Assembly: GCA_030017615.1 (NCBI GenBank)
Contig: JASEIG010000002.1
Span: 11,980-75,979 of the forward strand
Source: Patescibacteria group bacterium
GTDB lineage: Bacteria > Patescibacteriota > Minisyncoccia > UBA6257 > UBA9933
Length of the DNA stretch: 64,000 nucleotides
Reading direction: 5' to 3'
Under the pieces are notes generated by a model that worked only from the letters and a program-made list of their open reading frames with translations, searched no databases and was not told the DNA's origin. The position numbers and the translations under genes were made by a program. Below are positions 6,204 to 62,079 of the stretch, one piece after another. Numbering within the stretch: the stretch's first letter is position 1; the number at the start of each line of letters is the position of its first letter.

Positions 6204-6728
6204 ATGCCAAAATTGCAATTAATTGTCCAAACGGCTTCGGGTAGTTTTCAGTTTTGTAATTTCCGGATTGTGGCAAAACATTATTTAACAAAAGAAAAAT
6301 TTGAAGAATTTAAAAAAATTCTTGAGCAGTTAAAAACCGAGGGTAGAATGGAAATTGCCGACAGACTAAAAAAAGCGAAGGAATATGGAGACCTTTCGGA
6401 AAATGCCGAATATTCCGAAGCTAAAGAAGCTCAATCAAATATTGAAAATAAAATTATAGAGATTGAAAACATCATTAGAAACAGCGTGATTATAAAAAAA
6501 TCCGCCGGCGGTGCGACTGTTGAAATCGGCGCGACCGTCAAAGTTGAAAAAAACGGCAACGAGTTTGAATACACTATTACCGGTTCAAACGAAGCTGACC
6601 CGGAAAAAAATTTAATTTCAAACGAATCTCCTTTAGGCAGGGCGTTTTTGGGTAAAAAAGTCGGCGAAAAAATTGAAGTGGAAACCCCAAAGGGAAAACA
6701 AATCTATAAAATTTTGGAGATAAAATAG
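6204..6728 (+). CDS. greA: transcription elongation factor GreA (true start probably the internal GTG near 6270)
   Basis: Coiled-coil N-terminal domain with YGDLSENAEYSEAKEAQ, plus an FKBP-like C-terminal domain. Confidence 0.88.
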   Translation: MPKLQLIVQTASGSFQFCNFRIVAKHYLTKEKFEEFKKILEQLKTEGRMEIADRLKKAKEYGDLSENAEYSEAKEAQSNIENKIIEIENIIRNSVIIKKSAGGATVEIGATVKVEKNGNEFEYTITGSNEADPEKNLISNESPLGRAFLGKKVGEKIEVETPKGKQIYKILEIK

Positions 6729-6746: not shown

Positions 6747-8354
6747 TTGCAAATTACAAAAATGTTTTGGGGAGATAAATATGTCGGGGAAATAAAAAAA
6801 ATACACGAGAAAAAATTAGCGGCAGGCGAACCTTTGATAATTCGCGACGAAAAAACCGCTTCAGGTAAAGTCCATGTGGGGTCTTTGCGCGGCGTTGTAA
6901 TACACGGATTGATTTCCGAGATATTAAACGAGCAAGGCATAAAAAATAAATTTCTTTTTGAAATTAACGACTTTGACCCGATGGACGGATTACCGGTGTA
7001 TCTTGACGAGACAAAATTCAGGCCTCATATAGGCAAACCGCTCTGTAATGTCCCATCTCCTCAGGCAGGTGAAAAAGTAAAAAATTACGCGGAATATTTC
7101 GGCGAAGAATTTGCCGAAGTAATAAATAAAACGGGATTCAAACCGGAATTTTACAAATTAAGCGACCAATATAAAGCCGGAAAATTCAACGAACTTATAA
7201 AAATCGCGTTGGAAAACGCGGATAAAATTCGCCATATTTACAAAAAAATCTCCGGGTCGGAAAAAGGAAATGAATGGATGCCATTGCAGGTGATTTGCGA
7301 AAAATGCGGGAAAATAGGAACCACAAAAGTAATTTCTTTTGACGGAGAGATGGCTGAATATATTTGCGAACCGTCTATGGTTGAATGGGCGCAAGGTTGT
7401 GGGCGCCGCGGAAAAATTTCTCCGTTTAACGGAAACGCAAAACTGCCGTGGAAAGTGGAATGGGCGGCAAAATTTGTTGTATTTGGAGTGGATATTGAAG
7501 GCGCAGGGAAAGATCATTCCGGCAAAGGAGGTTCAAGAGAGATTGCGGATACGATTTGCAAAGAAATTTTTAATGCCAATCCGCCGTTTAATATACCCTA
7601 TGAATTTGTGCATATAAGCGGGGAAAAAATGTCGTCGTCAAAAGGCAGAGGCGCTTTTTCAAAAGATATTGCGGAATTGCTTCCGTTGGAAATGATACGT
7701 CTGCTTATGATTTCAAAAGATCCAAAAAAAGTGATTGATTTTGAACCGGAAAGCGATACCATCCCTGTTTTATACGACTTGAACGACAAAATCGCGGAAG
7801 TTTATTTTAATGGAATTAAAGATGATTATTTTCGGATGTTTGTTTTGTCGCGCGCGCCTGAACAAAGAAAAGATATTCAAAAAAGATTTTTGCCGAGATT
7901 TTCTCAAATCGCTTTTTTAGTTCAAATGCCGCATATGGACATATTTGAAATGATTGAAAAAATAAAAGGCGCGCCTTTGACGCAATTAGATAGGGAAGAG
8001 ATTGAATATCGCGTAAAATACGCGAAGTTTTGGCTCAACACCTACGCGCCCGAGGATTATAAATATGAACTTCAAGAAAACATTCCGCCAGCGGCAAAAA
8101 ACTTTTCCGAAAAACAAAAAGAAGCGCTCAAACTTATTTTGGATTACATAAAATCGCGGGATAAATTGGACGGACAAGAACTGCATACAAAATTCCATGA
8201 AATAAAAGAACAAACTCAAATAGAACCAAAAGAACTTTTTAGCGCTCTGTATTTAAGTATTTTAGGGAAAGAAAGCGGACCGAAAGCCGGTTGGTTTTTA
8301 AGCGTTTTGGATAAAAATTTTTTAATTGAAAGATTGAAGGAAATTATTAAATAA
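6747..8354 (+). CDS. lysK: class-I lysyl-tRNA synthetase (LysK-type)
   Basis: HIGH-type motif SGKVHVGSLRG, KMSSSKG variant of KMSKS, Cys cluster CEKCGK...C; about 535 aa. Assignment to Lys rather than another class-I aaRS is by motif recall only. Confidence 0.55.
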   Translation: MQITKMFWGDKYVGEIKKIHEKKLAAGEPLIIRDEKTASGKVHVGSLRGVVIHGLISEILNEQGIKNKFLFEINDFDPMDGLPVYLDETKFRPHIGKPLCNVPSPQAGEKVKNYAEYFGEEFAEVINKTGFKPEFYKLSDQYKAGKFNELIKIALENADKIRHIYKKISGSEKGNEWMPLQVICEKCGKIGTTKVISFDGEMAEYICEPSMVEWAQGCGRRGKISPFNGNAKLPWKVEWAAKFVVFGVDIEGAGKDHSGKGGSREIADTICKEIFNANPPFNIPYEFVHISGEKMSSSKGRGAFSKDIAELLPLEMIRLLMISKDPKKVIDFEPESDTIPVLYDLNDKIAEVYFNGIKDDYFRMFVLSRAPEQRKDIQKRFLPRFSQIAFLVQMPHMDIFEMIEKIKGAPLTQLDREEIEYRVKYAKFWLNTYAPEDYKYELQENIPPAAKNFSEKQKEALKLILDYIKSRDKLDGQELHTKFHEIKEQTQIEPKELFSALYLSILGKESGPKAGWFLSVLDKNFLIERLKEIIK

Positions 8355-8447: not shown

Positions 8448-10226
8448 ATGAATTCTCCCGTTGAAGAAATTAAAAATCGCATAGATATTGTGGATTTTCT
8501 GCGGTTTTATGTTGAACTAAAACCGGCTGGCAAAAATTTTAAAGCCCGATGTCCGTTTCATAACGAAAAAACGCCGTCTTTTATGGTGTCGCCGGAAAGA
8601 CAAACATGGCATTGTTTCGGTTCGTGTTCCGAAGGCGGCGATATCTTTAAATTTTTAATGAAATTTGAAAATATTGAATTTTACGAAGCGTTAAAAATTT
8701 TGGCGGAAAAAGCCGGCGTGGAGTTGAAAAAAATCAGTCCGTCCGACCAGAAACAGTTTGGAATTTTATACGACATAAACGAAACCGCGAAAGATTATTT
8801 TAAACAGCGGCTCGCGCAAAACGAACGGCCGCAAAAATATCTGGACGAGCGAAAATTAAAAAAAGAAACTATTGAAGAATTTGAAATCGGGTTTGCCCCG
8901 CAAGCGTATGACGAGCTCACGTTATATTTAGTGAATCTCGGGTATGACGTGAAAGATATTGAACGCGCCGGTTTGAATTTTAAAAGCGAAAGAGGAAATT
9001 ATCTGGACAGGTTCAGGGGAAGAATAATGTTTCCCATTTACAACCATTTCGGGAAAACCGTGGGGTTTAGCGGAAGAATTCTGCCGGAACTTGATAATGG
9101 AGAAATGGGCAAATATATAAACAGCCCCGAAACGCCAATTTTCAATAAATCAAAAATTCTCTATGGCTTTCATAAATCAAAAAACTTTATTCGGGAAGAA
9201 AAAAATGTTTTTTTAGTGGAGGGACAGATGGATTTTTTAATGTGCTGGCAGGACGGAATTAAAAACGCGGCGGCGACTTCAGGAACCGCCCTAACCGGCG
9301 ACCACCTTAAAGCGTTAAAACGCATTGCGGACAACCTTATTTTTTCTTTTGATAATGACGAAGCGGGATTAAAAGCCGCTGAAAGGGCGATTGACTTGGC
9401 AAATAATATGGATTTCAATGTGAAAGTTTTACCGCTGAAAGAATTTAAAGACCCGGCGGAAGCGGTAATGAAAAAACCCAGTTTTTTGAAAAGCATTATA
9501 AAAGAAGCAAAGCTCGCGATGGAATTTTATTTTGACGCGTATTTAAAGAAAAATGAAAGTGGCGATTTTTCTGATGACAAAAAAAACATCAGGGCGGTTT
9601 TGGCAAAAGTGAAAAATATTTCCAGTCCTATAGAGCGAGCGCACTGGCTCTCGGAACTTGGCCATAAAGTAAACATTGATGAAAAAATTCTTGCGGAAGA
9701 AATGAACCAGATAAAACTTGCGCCGGAAGGACAAACACTAAACGAAGAAAATTTTAAAAAAATAAATATTCAAACCGTTGCGGGAAAAAATAGAGTGGAT
9801 ATGATTGCCAAAAGATTGATTATCTTAACTTTGGCAATCGGGCAAAAACTGTCTGATGAAAAAAAGTGTCGTCTTTTCGGTAATTTAAAAGAATCTATTC
9901 AATATCTGCCCGAAAAATATAAAGAGATATTTGAATTGACGGCAAACGAAAAAACATCGGATAAGCCCGAAATTTTAAACCTGATGGAATCTCTTTCGCT
10001 TCAATCCAGTATGGAAATTGAAAAGCTGAAATCGGACGATAAAGCGGAACGTGAATTTTTAGAACTTTTAAAACAGTTGGAATTTGAATATTTAAAAAAC
10101 GAATCGGAAAAAACCGCAAAAAAAATAAAAGAGGCGGAAAAAAAGGATGATAAAGAAAATCTTGAAATTGCCCTTAAACAATTTGACAAGATATCAAAAC
10201 TGCTACACAATAAACAAGAAAGTTAA
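8448..10226 (+). CDS. dnaG: DNA primase
   Basis: Zinc ribbon CPFHNEKTPSF...HCFGSC; Toprim EGQMD...DND. Confidence 0.9.
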   Translation: MNSPVEEIKNRIDIVDFLRFYVELKPAGKNFKARCPFHNEKTPSFMVSPERQTWHCFGSCSEGGDIFKFLMKFENIEFYEALKILAEKAGVELKKISPSDQKQFGILYDINETAKDYFKQRLAQNERPQKYLDERKLKKETIEEFEIGFAPQAYDELTLYLVNLGYDVKDIERAGLNFKSERGNYLDRFRGRIMFPIYNHFGKTVGFSGRILPELDNGEMGKYINSPETPIFNKSKILYGFHKSKNFIREEKNVFLVEGQMDFLMCWQDGIKNAAATSGTALTGDHLKALKRIADNLIFSFDNDEAGLKAAERAIDLANNMDFNVKVLPLKEFKDPAEAVMKKPSFLKSIIKEAKLAMEFYFDAYLKKNESGDFSDDKKNIRAVLAKVKNISSPIERAHWLSELGHKVNIDEKILAEEMNQIKLAPEGQTLNEENFKKINIQTVAGKNRVDMIAKRLIILTLAIGQKLSDEKKCRLFGNLKESIQYLPEKYKEIFELTANEKTSDKPEILNLMESLSLQSSMEIEKLKSDDKAEREFLELLKQLEFEYLKNESEKTAKKIKEAEKKDDKENLEIALKQFDKISKLLHNKQES

Positions 10227-10293
10227 GTTTTATTAACACTCGCAAAACCCCGATAAAAGGGGGTTGTGTTTTGTTTAAAAAACACCTATTTAA

Positions 10294-11592
10294 ATGAAAA
10301 AAAATAAAAAAAGAAAAAAGAAAAAGAAAATATTCGCGAAAAAAACCGCCGCAAAAAAAAGAAAAATCGCGAAACCGAAAAGGAAAATTACCAAAAAAGT
10401 AAAAAAGAAAATAAGAAAACCGACGAAAATCGCGAAAAAATGGCGCAAAAAAACCAAAAAAACCGGTAGAAAACCAAGATCCGCGGCTAAGTTAAAAACT
10501 AAGGCAAAAAGCGCGGCAAAAATTTTATTTAATAAAGAAAAAGTAGAAGAACTTATTCATCGGGGAAGAAATAAGGGTTTTGTGACCGACACGGAAATTA
10601 TTTACTATTTCCCCAATATTGAGGACGACATTTCCCAGCTTGAAGAGTTATATGATGTTTTGGACAAAAATAACATTAAAGTCATTGAAACGGTGGCTTT
10701 AATTGACTTGCCGAAAGAGGATGGAGCTAAAAAGAAAAAAGATGAAAAACGCTATGAAGCTGACTTGCCAGATTCAGTCCAGCTTTATTTGAAAGAAATC
10801 GGCAGATACCCTCTTTTAACTTTTGCCGAAGAAAAAGATTTGGCGAAAAGAGCTGAAAATAATGATGAGGAAGCAAGGCAGAAACTTATTCAATCCAACT
10901 TAAGATTGGTTGTTTCCATCGCAAAAAGATACGCGCACAGAACGACTCAAATGAATATCTTGGATTTGATTCAGGAAGGAAACATCGGATTGTCAAAAGC
11001 CGTGGATAAATTTGATTACAGACGAGGATTTAAATTTTCCACTTACGCGACTTGGTGGATAAAACAGGCGATTGCCAGAGCGTTGGCGGACCAATCCAGA
11101 ACCGTCAGAATTCCGGTGCATATGATTGAAAATATTTCCAAATATACGCAGGTAAAAAGAAGATTAATGCAGGAACTGGGACGCGACCCTTTGGCGGAAG
11201 AAATCGCGATTGAAATGGGAACTACGGAAGATAAAATTTATAATTTGCAAAAAATTTCGCAGGAAGTTATTTCACTTGAAGCTCCATTGACGGAAGACAA
11301 CGAGGAAGCGACCTTGTCTGACTTGATTAAAGACGAAAAAAATCTTTCTCCAACTCAATCGGCCGAACTGGCGCTCTTGAAAGAAAAAATAAAAGAAATT
11401 TTAATTGACCTTACGCCAAGAGAGCAGGAAATTTTATTGCTTCGCTTCGGATTGGAAGACGGAATTACGCATACTCTGGAAGAAGTGGGGAAAAAATTCG
11501 GAGTTACGCGCGAAAGAATTCGTCAAATTGAAGCAAAATCTTTGGAAAAAATCAAAGTAAATATTAAATCAAAAGAATTGGAAGGATATTAA
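10294..11592 (+). CDS. rpoD: RNA polymerase sigma-70 factor RpoD with a roughly 75-aa lysine-rich N-terminal extension
   Basis: Regions 1.2-4 conserved ([11 protein letters not shown], region 2 IAKRYAHRT...[10 protein letters not shown], region 4 [21 protein letters not shown]). First ~75 aa is K/R-rich. dnaG-rpoD synteny. Confidence 0.92.
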
Positions 11593-13915: not shown

Positions 13916-13990
13916 TCCGCGGTAGCTCAATGGTAGAGCAACGCCCTGTTAAGGCGATGGTTGTAGGTTCGAGTCCTACCCGCGGAGCCA
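13916..13990 (+). tRNA. tRNA-Asn (anticodon GTT), CCA encoded
   Basis: Cloverleaf folded by hand: acceptor TCCGCGG/CCGCGGA, D GCTC/GAGC, anticodon stem ACGCC/GGCGA with loop CTGTTAA, T-stem GTAGG/CCTAC, T-loop TTCGAGT. Confidence 0.85.
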
Positions 13991-50063: not shown

Positions 50064-53000
50064 CTATACAGTCTTCAATCTTTGAAAAACTGTTTTTATA
50101 TTCGCAATCGCTTCCGCTTTTTTTATGGCATCGCTTCCGTTTATGTCTTTAAAATTTGTGTTAAAATTTTTTATCAGTTCAGTGTCAACTTTATTATTCC
50201 AATGACTGGCATAATAATCCGCGAATTCTTCCGTTCTTATTTTCCCGCCGTTAATTTGACTTGCCAATTCAATTATCTTGCCGTCAATATTTTTATCGTA
50301 AACAAAAGAATCAAACATCTGCTTTTTGAGAAAATCGCCGATGGGCATATTTTTAAATTTAATTCTATCGGCATCCGGATATTTTTTTAACATCTTTTCA
50401 ATCTCACTTTGGAATTTTTCTTTTTCATTTATTTCCCACCACTGCGGACTTCCATGTTCGGGTTTAACAACATAACCGACGACAGAATCTTCGTGGCCAA
50501 TAAAATCGCGAGACATTACTTTATCAACAGTGTTCTCTTTATTATTGATAAAAAAATCAATCCACGAAGATTTTTTAATATCTATTCCGGTTGAATTTTC
50601 CGCCCAATTTTTAATTCCTTCGGAAATCGACGCGGATTGATAAACGGATATATTTTGGTTTTCAACATCTTGCGGAATTATCGCGGGATTAATTTCAGCA
50701 GGTTCTTTTGTTATAACGAGTTTCGCTTCAACTTCCACAGAAGGAGCAATTTGGGGAGCAACTTTATTCGCGCCATCTCCGTCATTATCTTCGGGCAACC
50801 ACGAATATATTTTTGACTTGTCAAATTTAATTTCATCGCCGTCCAAAATAACCCGCGCGCCCGGTTCTGAAATTCTCAACTCGGTTCCCGCGTCTTGGTC
50901 TATTATTCCGTTTTTCACAAGCAGTTTGAGAGTTTCTTTGTTTAAAATCATCTTAATTTTATCCTGGTTAGCCAAATCTTCGGGCTTTATCCCTAAATTT
51001 GAAGCAAACTCGAAATTATGATGAATTTTATAATCCAGCTGACCGTAAACAGCTCGCCAAAAGCTGTTATTTTTCTCCGTTATTAACATTGCTTTCTCAA
51101 GTTCGGCGGGGATTCCAAAAGATTTTTGAAAAATAATTTCATCGGTTTTCTCAATAATTCCGGCTTTTCCAAATTGCTTCATCTGCTCTTCGGTAATGCC
51201 CATATATTTGGCAACCGGAATATACTTATCAGCGCTCATTCCCATCCCGCCGGCAATTTGACCGGATAACAGCCCAGACCCCACGCCTCCGACAGCCGCA
51301 GACACTGCCCACTTGGCTAAATTAATTTTTCTTTGACGTTTTAAATCATCTTCGTATATCCTTAAATATTCGCGGTTTAATTCTTCCAAATTTGACAGCG
51401 CGTCAAACCGCTCGCTCAATTTCCCCATTCTATAACCAAACGTTTTTTCTTTCCAAAGAGTTTTTTCCAATCCTTTTATCCCAAGAGCGGATAATCTTTC
51501 CGCGCCTAAAGTTAAAACAGTTGACAGCGCGGCGCGGCCAAAACGATATCCGCCAAACAACAAAGCGGCGGTTCCTCCCGCAACATATCCCCCGCCGACA
51601 GCCACTCCCGTCGCTATGGAAGCGGAAACAGCCCATCTCGCCGCTTTGGGCAAGCGAGCCCATCCGGATAAAAATTTCTGAAAAATATTTTTTTCTTTCG
51701 GAGGAAATTCCTCAATTTTTGCCTTGTTTAATATTTCGTTCTCTTCTATAACAAGTTTTTTAAAAATCTCGGAAGCGGAATATTTTTTCAGTTCGCTTTC
51801 CAATTCATTTCCGTTTTTGCCCTGAGATTGGAATTCCGACTTCTTGTTTCCATAAAGACTTTTCCCGTATTCCTTTTTTGATTTTTCATACGCGAATTTG
51901 GCAAATTCAGTTTCAAAAATTTTATCCGCCCTTATAATATCTTCACTTGTGAAAAATATGCCCCTTTCCGTTATATTTTTTATAAATTGTTCCTTTAGCC
52001 GTTTTTTATTGTCTTCGGATCCAAACCCGGCTTCAAATCCATTGCTTTCTTTTACAAAAAATTCTTTTAAGTTTTTTACGGCTGTTTTATGAGTTAAATT
52101 TTTTTCCTTTTTTGTTCCGCCAAAAGCTTTTAAATAATCTTTATAGGCGCCGGCATAAGCGGTTCGCGAAGCTTCAAGATTTTTTACGGATTCTTCAATG
52201 GAAATAAAGGCGTTTTTTTCGGTTTCTCCGGTTTTCGCCCGCATTTTTTCCAATTCCGATTTTACTTCTTTTCTTTCTTCATCGGAAAATATTTTTTCCG
52301 CTCCGCCAACCGGTGAAAGAATAATTTCAATTTTAACTTCTTTTTCCGGAACAGCCGAAATAATATGTTCTGTTACGGCATCTTTTCCCGTTTTCACGGG
52401 TTCTCCTTTAAGGGTTCTTCGTTCCTCATCGGTAAAAACCGCGCCCTTTAACCCTACGGGAGAAACTACTTCAATCAGCGGTTTTTCTTCGATTTGCGTT
52501 TCTTTTTTAATAATTTCTTTTTCAACTCGCGCATTATTAATACTTTTATATTCTTTAATGGTCTCTGTTTCTTCTATCGGTTTTGCCTCTTCAAATTTTT
52601 GAACTTTTTTTGTTTTCATTCTGTCGCGCGCCGATTTCGCTTTTTCCAATTCTTCCCTGAAAAAATTTTCCTTTTTTTGAAGTTCCAGTTTTTCAGTTTC
52701 AGTTTTCGCCGCTCTTAACACTTTTTTCGCGGCTATCAATTCTTTTCCTAAACGGTCTATTTCTTTTGAAATAAAAGAATGTCCACGTTCCTTGCTGTGT
52801 TTTTTATGAAACGGTTTTTCTAAATTTTGCGTTTGTTCTTTATTTTTTCCCGCCCCTGAAATATCTTGCGGTTTTTCCGCAAATGCGCCTTCTTTTTCAA
52901 CATTTTTTAAAACTTCTCCGATATGCGCAAACTTATCTTTTTTAGATTCTGTTTTTTTGGTCTTTTTAGGTTCTGTTTTTTCGCTTTTTTCAGATTTTGT

Positions 53001-53231
53001 TTTTTTATCTTTTTTAGATTTTTCTTTTTTTATTGTTTTAAAATCTTCGGGAGCGGCGGCGCCCAGACTTTTTGGTTTTGTATCTTTTTTTTCTCCCAGT
53101 TCCTTTGAAAATTCCTCTTCTGTTTTCTTCTTCTCATCAAGCGCTTTTTTCAACGCCTCAAACATAATACCCCCGGCGCGCGGTTCTTTTTTTTCTTCCT
53201 CTCCGGATTGATGAGGTGTTAATTTTTCCAT
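50064..53231 (-). CDS. giant (1055 aa) protein: K/E-rich low-complexity N-terminal half, two Gly-zipper TM segments, globular C-terminal domain
   Basis: Single long ORF; internal repeats SPVG..F(T/S)DEER; TM segments ARWAVSASIATGVAVGGGYVAGG and KWAVSAAVGGVGSGLLSGQIAGG. Confidence 0.55.
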   Translation of the reverse strand: MEKLTPHQSGEEEKKEPRAGGIMFEALKKALDEKKKTEEEFSKELGEKKDTKPKSLGAAAPEDFKTIKKEKSKKDKKTKSEKSEKTEPKKTKKTESKKDKFAHIGEVLKNVEKEGAFAEKPQDISGAGKNKEQTQNLEKPFHKKHSKERGHSFISKEIDRLGKELIAAKKVLRAAKTETEKLELQKKENFFREELEKAKSARDRMKTKKVQKFEEAKPIEETETIKEYKSINNARVEKEIIKKETQIEEKPLIEVVSPVGLKGAVFTDEERRTLKGEPVKTGKDAVTEHIISAVPEKEVKIEIILSPVGGAEKIFSDEERKEVKSELEKMRAKTGETEKNAFISIEESVKNLEASRTAYAGAYKDYLKAFGGTKKEKNLTHKTAVKNLKEFFVKESNGFEAGFGSEDNKKRLKEQFIKNITERGIFFTSEDIIRADKIFETEFAKFAYEKSKKEYGKSLYGNKKSEFQSQGKNGNELESELKKYSASEIFKKLVIEENEILNKAKIEEFPPKEKNIFQKFLSGWARLPKAARWAVSASIATGVAVGGGYVAGGTAALLFGGYRFGRAALSTVLTLGAERLSALGIKGLEKTLWKEKTFGYRMGKLSERFDALSNLEELNREYLRIYEDDLKRQRKINLAKWAVSAAVGGVGSGLLSGQIAGGMGMSADKYIPVAKYMGITEEQMKQFGKAGIIEKTDEIIFQKSFGIPAELEKAMLITEKNNSFWRAVYGQLDYKIHHNFEFASNLGIKPEDLANQDKIKMILNKETLKLLVKNGIIDQDAGTELRISEPGARVILDGDEIKFDKSKIYSWLPEDNDGDGANKVAPQIAPSVEVEAKLVITKEPAEINPAIIPQDVENQNISVYQSASISEGIKNWAENSTGIDIKKSSWIDFFINNKENTVDKVMSRDFIGHEDSVVGYVVKPEHGSPQWWEINEKEKFQSEIEKMLKKYPDADRIKFKNMPIGDFLKKQMFDSFVYDKNIDGKIIELASQINGGKIRTEEFADYYASHWNNKVDTELIKNFNTNFKDINGSDAIKKAEAIANIKTVFQRLKTV

Positions 53232-61069: not shown

Positions 61070-61140
61070 GGGCCTGTAGTATAACGGTAACACGTATCCA
61101 TGGCATGGATAAGTTAGGGGTTCGATTCCCCTCAGGTCCA
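61070..61140 (+). tRNA. tRNA-Ala (anticodon GGC), G3:U70 present, discriminator A73, CCA not encoded
   Basis: Hand-folded cloverleaf: acceptor GGGCCTG/CAGGTCC, anticodon stem TATCC/GGATA, loop ATGGCAT, T-arm AGGGG-TTCGATT-CCCCT. Confidence 0.8.
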
Positions 61141-61154
61141 CTAACTAATTTTAG

Positions 61155-61228
61155 GGGCCTATAGTTAAGTGGTATAACACCTCATTTGCAATGAGGAGGC
61201 GGCAGTCCGATTCTGCCTAGGTCCACCA
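61155..61228 (+). tRNA. tRNA-Ala (anticodon TGC), G3:U70, CCA encoded
   Basis: Acceptor GGGCCTA/TAGGTCC, D GTTA/TAAC, anticodon stem CCTCA/TGAGG, loop TTTGCAA, T-arm GGCAG-TCCGATT-CTGCC. Confidence 0.85.
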
Positions 61229-61297
61229 AAAAAATTTAGTTATTGTTATAATTATAATTACTTTATAGTTAATGATCAGTTATAAGTTAGTTTTATT

Positions 61298-61324
61298 GGA
61301 GGAGTGCCTGAGTGGTTATGGAAT
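61298..61324 (+). other. truncated 5' fragment of a class-II (Ser/Leu-like) tRNA: GGAGGAG-TG-CCT-GAGTGGTTAT-GGAAT
   Basis: Resembles acceptor 5' strand plus D-arm of tRNA-Ser; no 3' half follows. Confidence 0.4.
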
Positions 61325-61364
61325 TATAATAGAGATGTTTTTAAATGTATTTTCCCGAAATTTT

Positions 61365-61373
61365 ATGGTATAC
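61365..61373 (+). promoter_or_regulatory. extended -10 TGGTATACT immediately upstream of the second tRNA-Ser-like fragment and the HNH GTG start
   Basis: Motif read directly; one nucleotide separates it from the tRNA-like +1. Confidence 0.45.
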
Positions 61374-61374
61374 T

Positions 61375-61391
61375 GGATGAGTGGCCGAGAG
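61375..61391 (+). other. second truncated tRNA-Ser-like 5' fragment GGATGAG-TG-GCC-GAGAG (matches the 5' end of a bacterial tRNA-Ser as recalled from memory); the HNH GTG start codon lies inside it
   Basis: Strong match to the acceptor 5' strand + U8 G9 + D-stem GCC + GAGAG D-loop start; diverges after about position 17. Confidence 0.45.
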
Positions 61392-61857
61392 ATATAAAAG
61401 AAATCCAAATACTAAATGTGTAGTTTGTAATAATCCTATATATAGAAGACCTTATGAAATAAAAAGGAACAACGGGCGAGTTTTTTGCGGTATGACTTGC
61501 TATGGAGTTGCTTGCAGAAAAGAAATTTCTTGTGTTGTTTGTTCCACACCAATTTTATCTAGATTAAATAAAAAAACTTGCAGTAAAAGTTGCGCAAATA
61601 AATTTAGGGATGGTATCCGATATAAAATTAATAGCCCGCGAGATAAAGTTAAAAGCCAGAGAAGTTTGAAAATAAGGTTGTTAAATCAACGAGGTAAAAA
61701 CTGCGAAAGATGCGGATATGGTAAATTTGAAATTCTACAAGTGCATCACAAAAATAGAAACAGAGAAAATAATAAACTAGACAATTTAGAATTAATCTGC
61801 CCGAATTGTCATGCGGAAAAGCACTATCTAGAAAATAGTTGGCTCAATAACAAATAA
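61381..61857 (+). CDS. HNH endonuclease with N-terminal CxxC zinc-finger repeats
   Basis: Four CxxC pairs, then an HNH core containing the His pair HH and the C-terminal motif CPNCHAEKH. Confidence 0.8.
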   Translation: MAERYKRNPNTKCVVCNNPIYRRPYEIKRNNGRVFCGMTCYGVACRKEISCVVCSTPILSRLNKKTCSKSCANKFRDGIRYKINSPRDKVKSQRSLKIRLLNQRGKNCERCGYGKFEILQVHHKNRNRENNKLDNLELICPNCHAEKHYLENSWLNNK

Positions 61858-61885
61858 CAAATAAATTAACTATTTGTGGAGTTAT

Positions 61886-61973
61886 GGAGGGTTGCGCCGA
61901 ATGGTAAGGCACCAGTCTTGAAAACTGGGGCTCCGAAAGGGGCTTAGAGGTTCGAGTCCTCTACCCTCCGCCA
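61886..61973 (+). tRNA. tRNA-Ser (anticodon TGA), long variable arm, CCA encoded
   Basis: Acceptor GGAGGGT/ACCCTCC, anticodon stem CCAGT/ACTGG, loop CTTGAAA, T-arm AGAGG-TTCGAGT-CCTCT, discriminator G. Confidence 0.85.
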
Positions 61974-62006
61974 GTCAGGAAATGAAATTATTAACAATAA
62001 TAGTTG

Positions 62007-62079
62007 CGGCCCCAAGGGGAATTGAACCCCTGTTTTCAGGATGAGAACCTGATGTCCTGGTCCACTAGACGATAGGGCC
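62007..62079 (-). tRNA. tRNA-Glu (anticodon CTC), no encoded CCA
   Basis: Reverse complement GGCCCTATCGTCTAGTGGACCAGGACATCAGGTTCTCATCCTGAAAACAGGGGTTCAATTCCCCTTGGGGCCG closely parallels the tRNA-Glu architecture (TCGTCTAG...AGGAC D-arm); anticodon loop TTCTCAT. Confidence 0.8.

Follow-up and report, generated by a model that had tools for sequence, protein, structure and literature searches.

The primary sigma factor encoded in the window analysed here (the whole stretch of 64,000 nucleotides from contig JASEIG010000002.1 of a Patescibacteria group bacterium) carries a lysine-rich N-terminal tail of 79 residues in front of region 1.1. With about even confidence, we propose a single reading of this tail, as a translated, disordered polycationic extension before an intact region 1.1, in which the charge and not the sequence is selected, and which acts as a non-specific electrostatic arm for binding nucleic acids. 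Region 1.1 of sigma factors is the textbook case of acidic DNA mimicry, by which free sigma is prevented from binding DNA, and a large, poorly studied radiation places a tail of +30 to +80 before this region, with less acidity behind it. From the tail charge and the reduced acidity behind the tail, an essential sigma factor becomes basic (isoelectric point, pI, about 9.8).

An extremely basic N-terminus had been claimed in the original prediction, and this was borne out. The peptide quoted there is the exact translation of positions 10294–10530, with the first 76 residues identical, and the 79 residues of the tail include 36 lysines, seven arginines and no aspartate or glutamate (46% K, 13% A, 54% K+R and 0% D/E), giving a net charge of +43 and a pI of 12.0. 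The DNA encoding the tail is 59% A, with longest A-runs of 8. In an AlphaFold model based on a 74-sequence alignment, residues 1–79 were predicted as coil, with a predicted local distance difference test (pLDDT) score of 40–55. Among the 63 putative open reading frames (ORFs) of the window, the tail held the 30-residue stretch most densely occupied by K and R (20 of 30, against 15 and 14 for the runners-up), and on account of this top rank we take the tail to be real and unusual for this genome. A genome-wide habit of K-rich tails was rejected, as no comparable tract was found in the 62 other ORFs of the window and the neighbouring GreA is without one.

Next to its basicity, the tail had been described as standing in place of the acidic region 1.1, and this proved wrong. 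Residues 80–152 were identified as Sigma70_r1_1 (PF03979, E 4.7e-10, 39.7 bits versus a cut-off of 22.5), and matched the solved region 1.1 structures 2k6x (Thermotoga maritima sigma A), 5mww (Bacillus subtilis SigA) and 7l7b (Clostridioides difficile SigA). The helical region 1.1 (residues 81–136) was modelled at a pLDDT of 93–96, with a sharp rise after the tail. Region 1.1 of the window sigma is acidic (residues 80–140, net charge −7, pI 4.4), and the median net charge of region 1.1 in homologues is −9.5 over 73 residues. Since this folded and acidic region 1.1 comes after the tail, the tail is an extension placed before region 1.1. Compared with the canonical region 1.1 of group 1 sigma factors (Escherichia coli sigma-70, 2k6x and 5mww), residues 80–152 are alike in sequence, predicted fold and acidity; canonical sigmas, however, have no more than a few residues ahead of region 1.1, whereas the window sigma has the +43 tail first. 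At the boundary of the tail and region 1.1, we observed a hydrophobic-x-hydrophobic junction motif, the sole element of the tails conserved in position, which is KFKF in 29 of 106 tails and ILF in the window (10522–10533); this and the other motif counts below were made over 106 distinct homologue tails, without correction for kinship. The junction motif may serve as an anchor by packing against region 1.1.

The tail is genuinely translated. An in-frame TAA (10291–10293) stands directly before the ATG at 10294, and the next in-frame canonical start is the GTG of codon 97, within region 1.1, with no ATG, GTG or TTG in between. If the start codon were wrong, the A-rich stretch would be untranslated, translation would begin at about residue 80 or later, and the tail would be an artefact of gene calling. 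We consider this extremely unlikely. A start at codon 97 would truncate a well-folded domain modelled at pLDDT >93. The tail frame contains no stop in 79 codons, versus four stops in each of the other two plus-strand frames, and it stayed open in just 0.96% of mononucleotide shuffles, although an open frame is likelier by chance in T-poor DNA. A conserved start near residue 80, a possibility raised in the original prediction, was not found in the window or in relatives; 96 of 119 homologues are without any Met between residue 6 and region 1.1, and there is thus no conserved internal start. Several hundred divergent homologues keep this frame open and basic, also at loci of 47–49% guanine plus cytosine (GC), for which base composition is no explanation.

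Some public annotations do begin downstream of the tail, as expected for a downstream start. In the NCBI entry for the RpoD of candidate division Kazan RBG_13_50_9 (P0410, 374 residues), the protein begins at an ATC codon immediately ahead of region 1.1. At the corresponding locus L081 (META01000003.1, 2132–2500), however, a K/R-rich frame with a leading ATG (position 2141) spans the whole 365-nucleotide gap up to the dnaG stop and encodes a K/R/A-rich tail of approximately 120 residues. Because the frame is open upstream with an ATG at its head, the deposited annotation cuts off the tail. Three further entries (P0403, P0406 and P0433) look like similarly truncated annotations. As some public entries truncate the tail in this way, comparative studies based on such annotations miss it.

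A downstream start might also be argued from the lack of a Shine-Dalgarno motif before the ATG at 10294, but such motifs are generally missing in this genome: none of approximately 28 well-supported window genes has one within −20 to −6, and one gene has only AAGG at −5. The missing motif is therefore uninformative for the rpoD start, and the overall pattern suggests Shine-Dalgarno-independent initiation in window genes, possibly from short leaders or leaderless transcripts. The regions upstream of these genes look like that of rpoD; they are A/T-rich, and several have TATAAT-like hexamers near the ATG (for example 59608 and 3873). The RNA from around the rpoD start codon onward was predicted to be fully unpaired. 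Together with the missing Shine-Dalgarno motifs, this would agree with selection of the mRNA and not of the peptide, in which an A-rich, unstructured 5′ coding region aids initiation without a Shine-Dalgarno motif. Such an explanation is, in our judgement, highly improbable: an unstructured start needs approximately 10–15 codons and not 79–270, other highly expressed window genes (ribosomal proteins) are without such a tract, and GC-richer relatives use arginine, alanine and proline codons for the tail.

We then compared the tail across homologues. A basic tail before region 1.1 was present in 119 of the 120 closest homologues (59–83% core identity; names include Wolfebacteria, Harrisonbacteria and Paceibacterota), with a length of 21–113 residues (median 60) and a median net charge of +29. 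Likewise, it was present in 118 of 120 members of a second set (Staskawicz-, Taylor- and Parcubacteria types) and in nine of nine named Patescibacteria loci from GTDB genomes. The tails of a Kazan-type set were approximately 110–270 residues long with 35–87 K+R, and a short acidic patch was found between these tails and region 1.1. Pooled homologue tails were 41% K, 10% A, 7.5% R and 2.6% D+E. The tails were unalignable, with an identity to the window tail of 0.37 versus 0.34 for shuffled tails. The feature is lineage-specific, as originally suggested, and across the Patescibacteria sets its basic composition is conserved, but not its sequence.

Universality across the phylum was ruled out by tail-less sigmas of approximately 370 residues, one of which is annotated as Candidatus Saccharimonadales; approximately 35 such proteins (P0471–P0510) have a neutral N-terminus of approximately 16 residues. 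At the one Saccharimonadales locus covered (contig L082, 2423–2600), the dnaG stop overlaps the rpoD start, leaving no room for a tail. The label ‘Saccharibacteria’ of another locus, L006, was rejected; its hits are of the Staskawicz-, Taylor- and Parcubacteria types, and it is thus no sample of true Saccharimonadia. Outside Patescibacteria, the Firmicutes and most Chloroflexi sigmas sampled have short or acidic N-termini, and Propionibacteriaceae sigmas have K/A/T-rich N-terminal regions. In a scan of 50%-identity representatives, N-terminal extensions of basic or mixed K/E character turned up sporadically in other lineages; the named members of other tail-bearing lineages are one Caldisericia and one Clostridia/Bacilli metagenome-assembled genome (MAG).

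A by-product of AT-rich DNA was ruled out as the origin of the tail, as arginine-enriched tails persist at 47–49% GC (L001, L005 and L081), where a switch from K to R keeps the positive charge. Approximately 99% of the sampled homologues keep the tail, D and E are nearly excluded from it, the charge is kept by the K-to-R switch, other window ORFs are without a comparable tract, and the acidity of region 1.1 and its linker is lost alongside the tail. For these reasons, our results point to selection on the charge or composition of the tail, and not on its sequence, across most Patescibacteria lineages except Saccharimonadales.

Alternatively, the tail could be a functionless low-complexity expansion, in which replication slippage in A-rich DNA makes and resizes a harmless lysine tract. 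The identity of the tails at nearly the level of shuffled tails, their highly variable length, the short A-rich imperfect repeats in the DNA and the tail-less Saccharimonadales are what such an expansion would produce. The retention of the tail in several class-level lineages, the near-exclusion of D and E with preservation of charge at higher GC, the lack of a comparable tract in the 62 other ORFs and the loss of acidity in region 1.1 and the linker in step with tail presence all argue against it, and we consider a functionless expansion unlikely.

We also searched the tails for known motifs. No peptide repeat unit was found in the window tail, and the repeat finder TRF gave only short imperfect A-rich DNA repeats. 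The AT-hook core R-G-R-P is absent from the window tail, which has only ‘GRKPR’, and a GRP core was present in four of the 106 homologue tails. The [ST]PKK motif is likewise absent from the window tail, and it was mildly enriched in homologue tails (13 of 106 versus 4.9 expected). The description of the tail as histone-H1-like was therefore only partly supported: its lysine-rich, acid-poor and disordered composition agrees with this description, but the H1 domain and a repeat unit are absent. No linker-histone globular domain was detected, since Pfam matches at E up to 0.1 covered sigma regions only.

The presence of the tail goes with a real shift from the usual acidic N-terminal module, with the fold of region 1.1 kept; to this extent, part of the idea behind the original prediction holds. 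The full-length window sigma has a net charge of +35 and a pI of 9.83, and the core without the tail has a pI of 5.44. In a comparison of 338 tail-bearing with 78 tail-less proteins, with phyla mixed and without phylogenetic correction, the median net charge of the whole protein was +28 with a tail versus −18 without, and that of region 1.1 plus the linker to region 1.2 was −5 versus −16. The linker itself (10714–10770 in the window) is a short, near-neutral K/E/D segment in tail-bearing sigmas, and is strongly acidic in tail-less ones. As region 1.1 and the linker are less acidic and the whole protein is net-positive, these results suggest that the classical autoinhibition by an acidic DNA mimic is weakened in tail-bearing sigmas.

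The charge distribution raises another possibility, namely, an intramolecular or intra-holoenzyme regulator, in which the main partner of the tail is not DNA; instead, the tail folds back onto region 1.1, the sigma core (pI 5.4) or acidic patches of RNA polymerase and tunes region 1.1 insertion or ejection, core binding or sigma recycling. The acidic region 1.1 directly adjoins the +43 tail, and the Kazan-type proteins have their acidic patch at this same junction. Furthermore, deletion of the 205-residue N-terminal extension of Mycobacterium tuberculosis sigma A lowered the steady-state maximal velocity approximately 100-fold at the same half-maximal effective concentration, and the authors suggest an effect of this extension on holoenzyme recycling (PMC11888270). 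On the other hand, the +43 of the tail far outweighs the −5 of region 1.1 plus linker, the two charges correlate only weakly (r = −0.16, n = 338 tail-bearing proteins), and no confident tail contact was seen in the AlphaFold model, although for a disordered segment this says little. A regulator of this kind seems improbable to us.

By analogy with lysine-rich segments of other DNA-binding proteins, we infer that non-specific electrostatic binding of DNA is the most likely role of the tail. In the sigma-70/sigma A holoenzyme, region 1.1 occupies the basic downstream-DNA channel. Because region 1.1, which bears the tail, sits in this positively charged channel, the tail should project outward: with a charge of +43, it would be repelled from the channel and protrude from the holoenzyme. 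A protruding tail could hold free sigma or the holoenzyme on DNA, with retention on the nucleoid and a faster promoter search, and it could also contact flanking DNA and stabilise initiation complexes. The affinity for DNA or RNA, or the tethering to the nucleoid, put forward in the original prediction is thus plausible. Region 1.1 is known to be expelled from the channel upon DNA loading (PMC11888270). In addition, the lysine repeats of actinobacterial TopA stabilise the enzyme–DNA complex, and DNA-binding proteins, among them HrdB and the RpoD of Bordetella pertussis, are enriched in lysine repeats (PMC5714199). A precedent for a functional N-terminal extension is that of M. tuberculosis sigma A, with its large effect on transcription output (PMC11888270).

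Several points weigh against this role. Saccharimonadales do without the tail, and in the closest set tail length varies five-fold (21–113 residues) with no conserved motif; a low-complexity expansion under weak or no selection could show both traits as well. A polycation is equally able to bind RNA, polyphosphate and acidic lipids. In M. tuberculosis sigma A, the first 132 residues presumably cover the basic part of the extension. Removal of these residues left promoter binding, in vitro transcription and complementation unchanged, and only the acidic segment 132–179 was critical (PMC10011835). Dispensability of the first 132 residues in the assays used would also agree with a tail that has no function (PMC10011835).

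The promiscuity of polycations leads to a further alternative, in which the target is another polyanion, such as RNA (nascent transcripts or rRNA), polyphosphate or the anionic membrane, or in which the tail promotes phase separation, so that the transcription machinery is gathered together in these very small cells. The general chemistry of disordered regions rich in lysine would allow it; lysine-rich segments have reportedly been linked to polyphosphate binding, and disordered regions of bacterial RNA helicases to phase separation. Nothing in our data is specific to such a target in the case of sigma. Sigma works on DNA, and lysine repeats are especially common in proteins that bind DNA (PMC5714199); we assign this alternative only a slight probability.

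In its strongest form, binding of DNA by the tail would mean that most Patescibacteria have turned an acidic, auto-inhibited sigma into a net-positive nucleoid-associated protein; the polycationic tail would let free sigma and the holoenzyme coat DNA or slide along it, in place of the DNA-mimic logic of region 1.1. We regard this far-reaching form as unlikely. If it were true, the tail might take over from accessory initiation factors or nucleoid proteins that these reduced genomes have lost, and promoter search and stabilisation of the open complex would follow an alternative mode throughout the clade. Even if the tail simply binds DNA, models of promoter search, sigma partitioning and initiation would change for Patescibacteria. 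The natural contrast between presence in Parcubacteria and Kazan types and absence in Saccharimonadales offers a ready comparative design, and basic disordered extensions can be studied more simply in the Patescibacteria sigma than in mycobacterial sigma A.

Among the closest known systems is the N-terminal extension of M. tuberculosis sigma A. Its first approximately 100 residues are rich in K, R, A, T and P. Like the Patescibacteria tail, this extension (approximately 205–225 residues) is lineage-specific, disordered and N-terminal on an essential primary sigma, and it strongly affects transcription output (PMC10011835, PMC11888270). The mycobacterial extension, however, is described as non-homologous to region 1.1 and contains the essential acidic segment 132–179, whereas the window sigma has a folded region 1.1 and is without an acidic disordered segment, and hence is not of the mycobacterial type. 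Kazan-type relatives do have the short acidic patch after the tail, unlike the window sigma. The Patescibacteria tail is also shorter, far denser in charge (54% K+R and no acidic residues) and encoded in an AT-rich genome, and homology between low-complexity tails of Patescibacteria and mycobacteria cannot be claimed from sequence.

Lysine-rich low-complexity segments on DNA-transacting proteins are also found as the lysine repeats of Streptomyces HrdB, B. pertussis RpoD and actinobacterial TopA and HupS (PMC5714199), and such repeats were proposed to characterise GC-rich genomes (Strzalka et al. 2017, PMC5714199). The window genome has a GC content of 37%, and the presence of the tail in this genome contradicts that proposal. 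The actinobacterial segments, which the tail resembles only in composition, consist of A/P/K repeat units, whereas the window tail is without a repeat unit. In HrdB, the lysine repeats presumably lie between regions 1.1 and 1.2 and not at the N-terminus. Bacterial H1-like proteins include Hc1 and Hc2 of Chlamydia, AlgP of Pseudomonas and BpH1 of Bordetella. The tail resembles the histone H1 C-terminal domain in its composition (K with A, P, T and S), disorder and presumed electrostatic DNA binding. Compared with the H1-like proteins, it lacks a globular domain and AKP or KAAKK tandem repeats, and it is an appendage of an enzyme subunit, whereas those are stand-alone nucleoid proteins. Our literature search, which mostly did not cover subscription journals, found no description of a sigma tail in Patescibacteria (the candidate phyla radiation, CPR). 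Basic disordered appendages on primary sigmas are already known in Actinobacteria and Bordetella; what appears to be new is the clade-wide case in Patescibacteria.

The coordinates of the sigma factor gene, its domains and the neighbouring elements are listed in Table 1.

Table 1. Features of the rpoD locus in the 64-kb window (MFE, minimum free energy)
Feature	Position	Strand	Basis or remark
Primary (group 1) sigma factor ORF	10294..11592	+	432 residues plus stop; all sigma-70 regions
Polycationic N-terminal tail, residues 1–79	10294..10530	+	Composition; predicted disordered
Region 1.1, residues 80–152	10531..10749	+	Pfam PF03979, PDB matches, AlphaFold
Region 1.2, residues 160–193	10771..10872	+	Pfam PF00140, E 3e-15
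Region 2, residues 198–270	10885..11103	+	Pfam PF04542, E 7.3e-21
Region 3, residues 279–355	11128..11358	+	Pfam PF04539, E 6.5e-17
Region 4, residues 372–421	11407..11556	+	Pfam PF04545, E 6.1e-15
dnaG (DNA primase)	8448..10226	+	Pfam Zn_ribbon_DnaG, DNAG_N, Toprim; directly upstream of rpoD
Two adjacent hairpins in the 67-nucleotide dnaG–rpoD spacer	10246..10285	+	MFE −19.7 kcal/mol, z −2.87
Candidate rpoD promoter, TTGACA-17-CACAAT	10183..10211	+	Consensus match only; inside the dnaG 3′ end

The assignment to a primary-type sigma with canonical regions 1.2–4 beside dnaG, as originally predicted, was confirmed by the Pfam domains, the top NCBIfam matches and the upstream position of dnaG. 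As in group 1 sigma factors, PF00140, PF04542, PF04539 and PF04545 were found in this order, each over its curated cut-off, and region 1.1, which separates group 1 from groups 2–4, was present by PF03979, PDB matches and pLDDT. Region 2 contains the motif YATWWIKQ, which is invariant in the homologue alignment. The RpoD models were the best NCBIfam matches of the window sigma, although the equivalog cut-off was not reached (NF006666, 410.7 bits versus 572; TIGR02393 RpoD_Cterm, 322.5 versus 354). These sub-cut-off scores fit a divergent phylum, and we do not read them as a sign of another sigma group. A second sigma-70 homologue was not detected by tblastn within the 64-kb window. A protein 100% identical to the window sigma is annotated in a Patescibacteria MAG (P0001).

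The order dnaG–rpoD, as expected for a group 1 gene, was also found in L081 and L082, and rpsU was not seen upstream of the pair. The alaS gene lies downstream of rpoD, and greA and the gene for a class I lysyl-tRNA synthetase lie further upstream. Of the ‘classical dnaG–rpoD operon’ claimed in the original prediction, the adjacency was confirmed, but co-transcription is uncertain owing to a terminator-like hairpin between the two genes. This first hairpin (10246–10265) is followed by a T-rich run, and base-pairing between this run and the A-run behind it can give the second hairpin. The spacer hairpins might act as a terminator of dnaG, as an attenuator or in stabilising the 5′ end of an rpoD transcript from the candidate promoter at 10183–10211. 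Promoter-like sites in this region were no more numerous than in shuffles. No structured RNA in the region matched Rfam at gathering thresholds, and a minus-strand ORF of 55 residues rich in F (10290–10457) is the mere complement of the A-rich coding strand.

Further observations were made elsewhere in the window. The lysyl-tRNA synthetase (6747–8354, plus strand) is of class I (Pfam tRNA-synt_1f) and not of the usual bacterial class II. The GreA ORF (6204–6728, plus strand) has approximately 25 extra N-terminal residues (MPKLQLIVQTASGSFQFCNFRIVAK...) before Pfam GreA_N, which are probably an over-extended ORF call and not a real extension. A minus-strand ORF of 1055 residues (50064–53231), without a Pfam match, has a K/E/S/T-rich low-complexity N-terminal region, as well as long, charged, helical-looking stretches and glycine/alanine-rich hydrophobic segments. 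Around residue 64 of this protein, K and R occupy 15 of 30 positions; apart from this segment and the sigma tail, nothing in the window is notably rich in lysine. Five tRNA genes were identified, four clustered at 61–62 kb (61070–62079) and one at 13916–13987, and these were the only Rfam families at gathering score in the window.

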